Sequence record: PP216085
Length of the DNA stretch: 64,000 nt
DNA from: Escherichia phage vB_EcoM_HZ_ZJUN4
Direction: 5' to 3' (one strand)
Below, in pieces: positions 42,320 through 43,016 of the stretch. The position numbers were made by a program, and so were the translations under genes. The notes under the pieces are model-generated. The model worked only from the letters and a program-made list of their open reading frames with translations, was not told the DNA's origin and did no database searches. How positions within the stretch are numbered: the stretch's first letter is position 1; every line of letters begins with the position of its first letter.

Positions 42320-42561
42320 TGTCTGAACAAACTATTGAACAAAAACTGTCTGCTGAAATCGTAACTCTGAAGTCTCGTATCCTTGATACGCAGGACCAGG
42401 CGGCTCGTCTGATGGAAGAATCCAAAATTCTGCAAGGAACTTTGGCTGAAATTGCTCGTGCAGTAGGTATCACTGGTGATACTATCAAAGTTGAAGAAAT
42501 CGTTGAAGCTGTCAAGAATCTTACTGCTGAATCTACTGATGAAGCAAAAGATGAAGAATAA
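42319..42561 (+). CDS. 57A: tail fibre assembly chaperone gp57A
   Basis: 80 aa; coiled-coil; ATGA overlap with gene 1 stop. Confidence 0.85.
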
Positions 42562-43016
42562 TGGAATTTAAAGACTTTTCAACGGGTCTTTATGTAGCAG
42601 CTAAGTTTTCAGAATTAACACTTGATGCGCTGGAAGAACTCCAGCGCTCTTTACGTGTTCCTAATCCAGTTCCTAGAGAAAAAATTCATTCGACCATATG
42701 TTATTCAAGAGTAAATGTTCCGTATGTTCCATCAAGCGGAAGTTTTGAAGTAGCTTCTTCTGGACATTTAGAAGTATGGAAAACACAAGATGGATCGACT
42801 CTTGTACTTGTGCTAGATTCTGAATATCTGCGCTGTCGACACATGTATGCGCGGGCACTAGGTGCTACACATGATTTTGATGATTACACACCGCATATAA
42901 CATTGTCTTATAATGTTGGGCCCTTATCATTTAGCGGTGATGTACAAATTCCGGTCGTATTAGATCGTGAATACAAAGAGCCTCTTAAACTCGATTGGGC
43001 AGATGATTTAAAATAA
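42561..43016 (+). CDS. 57B: gp57B, 2H phosphoesterase (Acb1 anti-CBASS nuclease family)
   Basis: 151 aa; two H-x-T/S motifs (HSTICYSR and HITLSY) typical of the 2H fold; synteny 57A-57B-ipI. Confidence 0.8.

Follow-up and report, generated by a model that had tools for sequence, protein, structure and literature searches.

An anti-CBASS phosphoesterase of the Acb1 type predicted at the gene 57B locus of Escherichia phage vB_EcoM_HZ_ZJUN4

Based on all analyses, it was concluded, with a probability of about 97%, that the gene following 57A in the phage vB_EcoM_HZ_ZJUN4 is the T4-type acb1 gene of a T4-like Tequatrovirus, and that its product is a small metal-independent 2H phosphoesterase degrading the cyclic oligonucleotides of CBASS immunity. 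The open reading frame was confirmed as real, and nothing in the sequence evidence argued against the Acb1 identity. The finding was already known, as the protein has the sequence of the T4 enzyme, whose structure, mechanism, substrates and phenotype have been published in full mechanistic detail. The identity, the family membership, the conservation of the catalytic and contact residues and the gene context were established here from the window, i.e., the whole stretch of 64,000 nucleotides that was analyzed (record PP216085), while for the biochemistry and the phenotypes we relied on published work with the T4 protein of identical sequence.

The acb1 product was compared with T4 gp57B (NP_049750.1) by BLASTP, and all 151 residues were found to be identical to the T4 residues 2-152, the first methionine being the sole difference between the two proteins. 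In the Pfam profile search, the product matched PF23474, "Anti-CBASS protein Acb1", with 202.7 bits (E=2.6e-60), the gathering score used as the cut-off being 27. The match covered the full profile, as residues 8-149 were aligned with the profile positions 1-144 out of 144. The best match among the PDB sequences was Acb1 of the entries 7t26_A/7t27 (E=4.1e-62, residues 8-148), and the second, weak one was another Acb1, 9q2g (E=0.004). The protein was assigned to the Acb1 family on the full-length match above the curated gathering score together with the identity to T4 Acb1, the founding member. The initial annotation had called the gene product a 2H phosphoesterase of the Acb1 type and had named Acb1 as the product of T4 gene 57B; the former was borne out by the Pfam and PDB matches, and the latter is stated, with the accession NP_049750.1, by Hobbs et al. 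2022 (PMC9117128). Homologues of the product were detected by tblastn in 1470 phage records, 498 of which contained a protein at least 99% identical. Short antisense open reading frames located inside acb1 (42673-42858) were without support. The coordinates of the main features are collected in the Table.

Table. Location of acb1, its motifs, its neighbours and the second anti-CBASS gene in the window.
Feature	Position	Strand	Basis
T4 late-promoter-like TATAAATA, inside gene 1, 363 nt upstream of 57A	41956-41963	+	Motif match
Gene 57A (tail-fibre assembly chaperone), 80 aa	42319-42561	+	Pfam GP57, 168.5 bits
acb1 (T4 gene 57B orthologue), CDS, 151 aa and TAA stop	42561-43016	+	ATG-start ORF, T4 identity, Pfam, PDB
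First catalytic H-x-T motif, H43-S44-T45 (T4 H44/T46)	42687-42695	+	Invariant H and T; published role
Second catalytic H-x-T motif, H112-I113-T114 (T4 H113/T115)	42894-42902	+	Invariant H and T; published role
Putative C-terminal lid, residues 144-151 (T4 145-152), including W146 (T4 W147)	42990-43013	+	Identity to T4
Sigma-70-like site TTTACA-17-TACTAT with upstream TG, acb1-ipI spacer	43030-43058	+	Consensus match only
ipI (internal protein I, inhibitor of GmrSD type IV restriction)	43089-43376	+	Pfam IPI_T4 (PF11634), 180.1 bits, residues 20-95
acb2 (vs.4 homologue), second anti-CBASS gene	53332-53595	+	93% identical to T4 Vs.4; Pfam PF24729 Acb2_Tad1_hairpin, 70.5 bits

The two H-x-T/S motifs characteristic of the 2H superfamily were present in the acb1 product exactly where the initial annotation had placed them in the 151-residue protein, HSTICYSR from residue 43 onwards and HITLSY from residue 112 onwards. 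All catalytic and contact residues of T4 Acb1 were found with an offset of -1, namely Y11, H43, T45, W73, F106, H112, T114, E140 and W146. Hence, the protein possessed the HxT/HxT tetrad, the stacking aromatic residues Y11, W73, F106 and W146, the glutamate E140 and the C-terminal lid, although the lid and the base-stacking role of W146 are those expected from the identity to T4. Further, the window protein was aligned with the T4 and FBB1 Acb1 proteins and eight divergent homologues (66% to 30% identity) from phages of Serratia, Escherichia (Krischvirus), Aeromonas, Acinetobacter, Cronobacter, Vibrio, Klebsiella (Slopekvirus) and Salicola. Across these 11 sequences, down to 30% identity, H43, T45, H112 and T114 were invariant, as was E137, and Y11 was nearly so. 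The histidine motifs therefore withstood a careful alignment and corresponded to the published catalytic residues, and the invariance of the tetrad meant that they were more than a coincidence in a single protein. A fortuitous pair of H-x-T/S motifs was ruled out by the family, structure and T4 matches, which, taken together, lie far beyond chance.

The closest crystal structure was that of the Acb1 protein encoded by FBB1, an Erwinia phage, solved at 1.1 Å (7T26, apo form; 7T27, with 3'3'-cGAMP), and we infer the 2H fold of the acb1 product from its 68% identity (E=4e-62) to 7T26, whose fold has been described as a compact one of the 2H phosphoesterase type. Both proteins share the HxT/HxT tetrad, the aromatic stacking positions and the C-terminal lid with a tryptophan. 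The FBB1 motifs, however, are HTT and HIT rather than HST and HIT, position 74 is occupied by phenylalanine instead of tryptophan and position 107 by tyrosine instead of phenylalanine, which are conservative aromatic swaps, and the two proteins differ by a one-residue insertion after the β-hairpin. A separate observation was made for the Acb1 homologues of the Cronobacter phage leB (2013-2585) and the Klebsiella phage 150040 (1959-2582). Both carried a conserved C-terminal extension of ~45 aa (…HIEHRGDKWVILNHDRTKELGEYDSKEAVEKRLRQIEYFK…) not seen in T4-type Acb1, and both were without the lid tryptophan. The extension may represent an additional domain fused to the protein, or else a changed form of the lid.

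At the DNA level, the acb1 coding sequence differed from that of T4 by 6 of 459 nucleotides. Five of the differences were synonymous third-codon changes, and no non-synonymous change was recorded in the 151 shared codons. The sixth one replaced the first ATG of T4 by ATA and, in the frame of 57A, changed the stop codon from TGA to TAA, resulting in the sequence ATAATG at 42558-42563, where the T4 57B start reads ATGATG. Initiation must therefore take place at the codon equivalent to T4 Met2. This loss of the first T4 start codon was the sole local peculiarity of the gene. The T4 annotation gives a protein of 152 aa whose gene overlaps 57A by 4 nt (ATGA), whereas in this phage a 151-aa protein is encoded, and the 57A stop and the acb1 start share a single base (TAATG). 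Most of the divergent Acb1 homologues likewise begin at the T4 Met2 position, and, together with the ATA found here, these starts appear to raise the question of whether the annotated Met1 of T4 is ever used. The N-terminus could thus differ from that of T4 by one methionine. Such N-terminal residues are unlikely to matter, since the FBB1 crystal construct does without those preceding about residue 8. The region around acb1 was ~95-97% identical to T4 and ~95-96% identical to the nearest database relatives over 24 kb. Judged by its sequence, the window DNA is that of a mosaic Tequatrovirus and not of T4 itself.

The gene order 2-3-1-57A-57B-ipI-trna.4 of T4 was the same as in the window, and the spacer preceding ipI was almost identical. 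The one-base overlap suggests that the translation of acb1 is coupled to that of 57A. The late-promoter-like TATAAATA was found at an equal distance upstream of 57A in T4, and it was considered a candidate promoter for the transcription of 57A and acb1. The ipI gene started 72 nt downstream of acb1, and its product was 100% identical to T4 IPI, which is injected and inhibits the type IV restriction enzyme GmrSD. The product combined a match to the mature nuclease inhibitor IPI* with the N-terminal capsid-targeting leader MKTFKEF...ITE. Both hexamers of the sigma-70-like site in the acb1-ipI spacer were conserved in T4, which suggests that ipI could be transcribed independently from its own promoter. 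However, the scan for sigma-70 promoters and terminators returned 12 sites against a shuffled expectation of 8.2±3.1, i.e., close to chance, therefore single promoter-like sites were treated as hints only. The same spacer contained an inverted repeat, GATGAGGTA…TATCTCATC, at 43040-43068 of the plus strand, which encloses the -10 hexamer of the promoter-like site. The 3' arm of this repeat in T4 is TACCTCATC, giving a perfect 9-bp stem, while one position is G·T here. The repeat could form an RNA hairpin, with which either the ipI transcript would begin or the acb1 transcript would end.

The proximity of ipI had led to a proposal in the initial annotation that this part of the genome was an anti-defence cluster. 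It held for the downstream side, where ipI is the next gene, but not for the upstream side, as acb1 is part of a conserved block with 57A (tail-fibre chaperone), gene 1 (dNMP kinase) and gene 3 (tail completion), and these three genes do not serve anti-defence. A stronger version would state that acb1 belongs chiefly to an anti-defence island under common regulation, along with ipI and the small open reading frames downstream, its placement being due to selection for clustering and not to common ancestry with 57A. Apart from the adjacent GmrSD inhibitor gene, such a reading is favoured by the phage Bas37, in which an inhibitor of a different type IV restriction system (McrBC), bas37_0260, occupies the ipI locus, by the Krischvirus Skers, in which a gene annotated as 'putative Dmd' lies ~0.7 kb downstream of acb1, and by gp2, a DNA end protector encoded 1.6 kb upstream. 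The Dmd protein of T4 is an antitoxin against RnlA. The synteny was compared in eight divergent phages. The order 3-1-57A-acb1 was kept in seven genera of Straboviridae, whereas the genes downstream of acb1 differed completely, and in the Salicola phage SCTP-2 the acb1 homologue was found in an unrelated gene context. Moreover, acb1 overlaps the stop codon of 57A, while ipI has a promoter-like site of its own, and acb2 lies ~10 kb away from acb1, with structural or metabolic genes in between. Placement by clustering selection was thus regarded as unlikely. It concerns the organization of the genome and is compatible with the Acb1 function proposed here.

The locus is better described as a conserved block that ends with acb1 and is followed by a hyperplastic region, which tends to hold counter-defence genes. 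Tentatively, and with rather low confidence, acb1 could be viewed as the invariable border of a hypervariable island of counter-defence genes reaching from ipI to about the vs genes, whose uncharacterised open reading frames might inhibit host defence. Such an inhibition was recently demonstrated for bas37_0260 at the ipI locus. The open reading frames of the proposed island include trna.4, an allele of trna.3 that is 51% identical to that of T4, trna.2 and four extra leader-bearing frames.

These four frames, all on the plus strand (45992-46465, 46591-47154, 50935-51252 and 51269-51742), began with an MK[TS][FY]xEF..E leader as at the N-terminus of IPI, a sequence by which internal proteins are targeted to the capsid. 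The first two were assigned to PHROG 2280 and the third one to PHROG 3966, both of unknown function, and the fourth one to PHROG 3155, 'internal virion protein', and Pfam DUF7412. They sit roughly at the positions of segB/e.7 and ipII/ipIII/denV in T4, and a tblastn search with T4 ipII, ipIII, denV, segB, e.7 and mobD gave no match within the window. The four proteins are candidates for injected anti-restriction proteins.

Several other differences from T4 were noted in the window, all on the plus strand. The tRNA cluster (44405-45236) comprised 10 genes, Gln, Leu, Gly, Pro, Ser, Thr, Met(CAT), Tyr, Asn and Arg, versus 8 annotated in T4, with Tyr and Asn being extra, a tRNA with the CAT anticodon at the position of the annotated tRNA-Ile of T4, and the segB homing endonuclease absent from between the tRNA genes. 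The trna.3 homologue with the identity given above was located at 43625-44014, when the flanking trna.4 and trna.2 were 100% and 98% identical to those of T4. The tk.4 macro-domain protein (55281-55745; Pfam Macro, 32 bits) was 58% identical to its T4 counterpart, compared with 95% for vs and 99.5% for tk on its two sides. Such mosaic spots at trna.3 and tk.4 suggest allele replacement by recombination. In the vs.5 homologue (53118-53292), the alignment with T4 fell into two abutting pieces in different frames, one of residues 1-17 (53118-53168) and one of residues 17-58 (53167-53292), which suggests a frameshift or an indel relative to T4.

The function of the T4 protein has been determined directly. 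Hobbs et al. 2022 (Nature) fractionated T4-infected cells guided by activity, identified the "uncharacterized T4 gene 57B" as encoding the enzyme that degrades 3'3'-cGAMP, and named it Acb1 (PMC9117128). In T4 Acb1, Y12, W74, F107 and W147 stack on the bases, E141 contacts the adenine N6, and the scissile phosphate lies above the tetrad H44/T46/H113/T115 (PMC9117128). The reaction proceeds without metal, the cut is made 3' of adenosine via a cyclic phosphate, neither cA4 nor the 2'-5' bond of 3'2'-cGAMP is cleaved, and the H44A/H113A variant is inactive (PMC9117128). The enzyme blocks the effectors Cap5, Cap4 and CapV, and, with Acb1 expressed in the host, phage P1 plated ~1.5 log higher in the presence of a type III CBASS operon (PMC9117128). 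T4 Δacb1 grew normally without CBASS and suffered a >300-fold loss with it, and the enzyme activity was seen from ~15 min into T4 infection (PMC9117128). Later work on T4 confirms that 57B/acb1 is conditionally essential under CBASS, as in the transposon sequencing of T4 (HIDEN-SEQ) the gene was dispensable on K-12 and insertions were depleted only on the CBASS host. According to a transcriptome atlas, 57B/acb1 and vs.4/acb2 are expressed predominantly in the middle and late phases, which for 57B agrees with the time at which the activity appears in T4 infection. In 2026, it was reported in PLoS Biology that T-even BASEL phages with intact acb1 were restricted by type II Panoptes, a guard of a cA3 decoy, and that acb1 nonsense or point mutants escaped it.

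A different function is implied by the names under which the gene is often found. The product may be taken for an RNA ligase, or for a LigT-like 2',3'-cyclic phosphodiesterase acting on RNA, e.g., in tRNA repair, as T4 57B is labelled 'RNA ligase' in RefSeq, PHROG 755 is described in the same way, LigT itself is a member of the 2H superfamily, and acb1 lies ~1.4 kb from the cluster of 10 tRNA genes. However, at E<=0.1 the Acb1 model was the sole Pfam match of the product, the LigT and 2'-5' RNA ligase families being absent, and no LigT-type or other model was matched in NCBIfam at E<=1, a scan that was uninformative for this protein, its library covering the naming of bacterial and archaeal genomes. 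Furthermore, the identical T4 protein was purified by tracking the cleavage of 3'3'-cGAMP, the T4 Δacb1 phage was normal without CBASS, and a ligase activity was not reported in the Acb1 literature examined. 'RNA ligase' as the primary function was therefore rejected on the lack of a LigT-type model and the direct biochemistry of the T4 protein, and activity on RNA was considered extremely improbable. The label looks like a stale, inherited annotation made at the superfamily level. The lag was visible elsewhere: RefSeq T4 (NC_000866, 73952-74410) and PHROG 755 of PHROGs v4 carry 'RNA ligase', most GenBank relatives carry 'hypothetical protein', and among the 40 tblastn matches listed one record only was named 'anti-CBASS protein Acb1'.

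Acb1 resembles other 2H phosphoesterases, both the LigT-type enzymes and the viral ones cleaving immune nucleotides, in having two H-x-T/S motifs, metal-independent acid-base catalysis and a 2',3'-cyclic phosphate, a likeness that partly reflects established knowledge of the superfamily. It differs in the substrate, which is a cyclic di- or trinucleotide for Acb1, when the other enzymes act on RNA ends or 2'-5' oligoadenylate. The Acb2 sponge (T4 Vs.4) also targets CBASS signals, but it has an unrelated fold and sequesters the signals rather than hydrolyzing them. Both acb1 and acb2 were present in the window, therefore the phage holds a degrading and a sequestering counter-measure.

It was proposed that Acb1 of this phage acts in the same manner as the T4 enzyme. 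During infection, mainly in its middle and late phases, the protein would bind the cyclic di- and trinucleotide messengers produced by the CD-NTases of the host CBASS. The messenger would be held in a U-shaped pocket formed by Y11, W73, F106 and W146 (Y12, W74, F107 and W147 of T4), over which the C-terminal lid would close, and the adenine N6 would be read by E140 (T4 E141). The H43-x-T45/H112-x-T114 tetrad would then catalyze a reaction in which the adenosine 2'-OH attacks the 3'-5' phosphodiester, resulting in a 2',3'-cyclic phosphate intermediate and further in a linear product such as GpAp. With the signal removed, the CBASS effectors (Cap4, Cap5, CapV and others) would not be activated, and abortive infection would be prevented. 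The expected substrates are 3'3'-cGAMP, cUA, cAAA and cAAG, while no cleavage is expected for cGG, for cA4 or at the 2'-5' bond of 3'2'-cGAMP.

As a discovery, the assignment adds little, and its practical value consists in the correct annotation of the gene and in a predicted sensitivity profile of the phage. The presence of intact acb1 and acb2 predicts resistance to CBASS systems signalling by 3'3'-cGAMP, cUA or cAAA, and the phage is predicted to be vulnerable to CBASS variants using cGG or 3'2'-cGAMP. The same Acb1 activity should expose the phage to Panoptes, which guards decoy cyclic nucleotides, and an intact acb1 predicts vulnerability to such guard systems. Acb1 would thus be both a weapon and a liability of the phage, combining the evasion of CBASS with a sensitivity to Panoptes.
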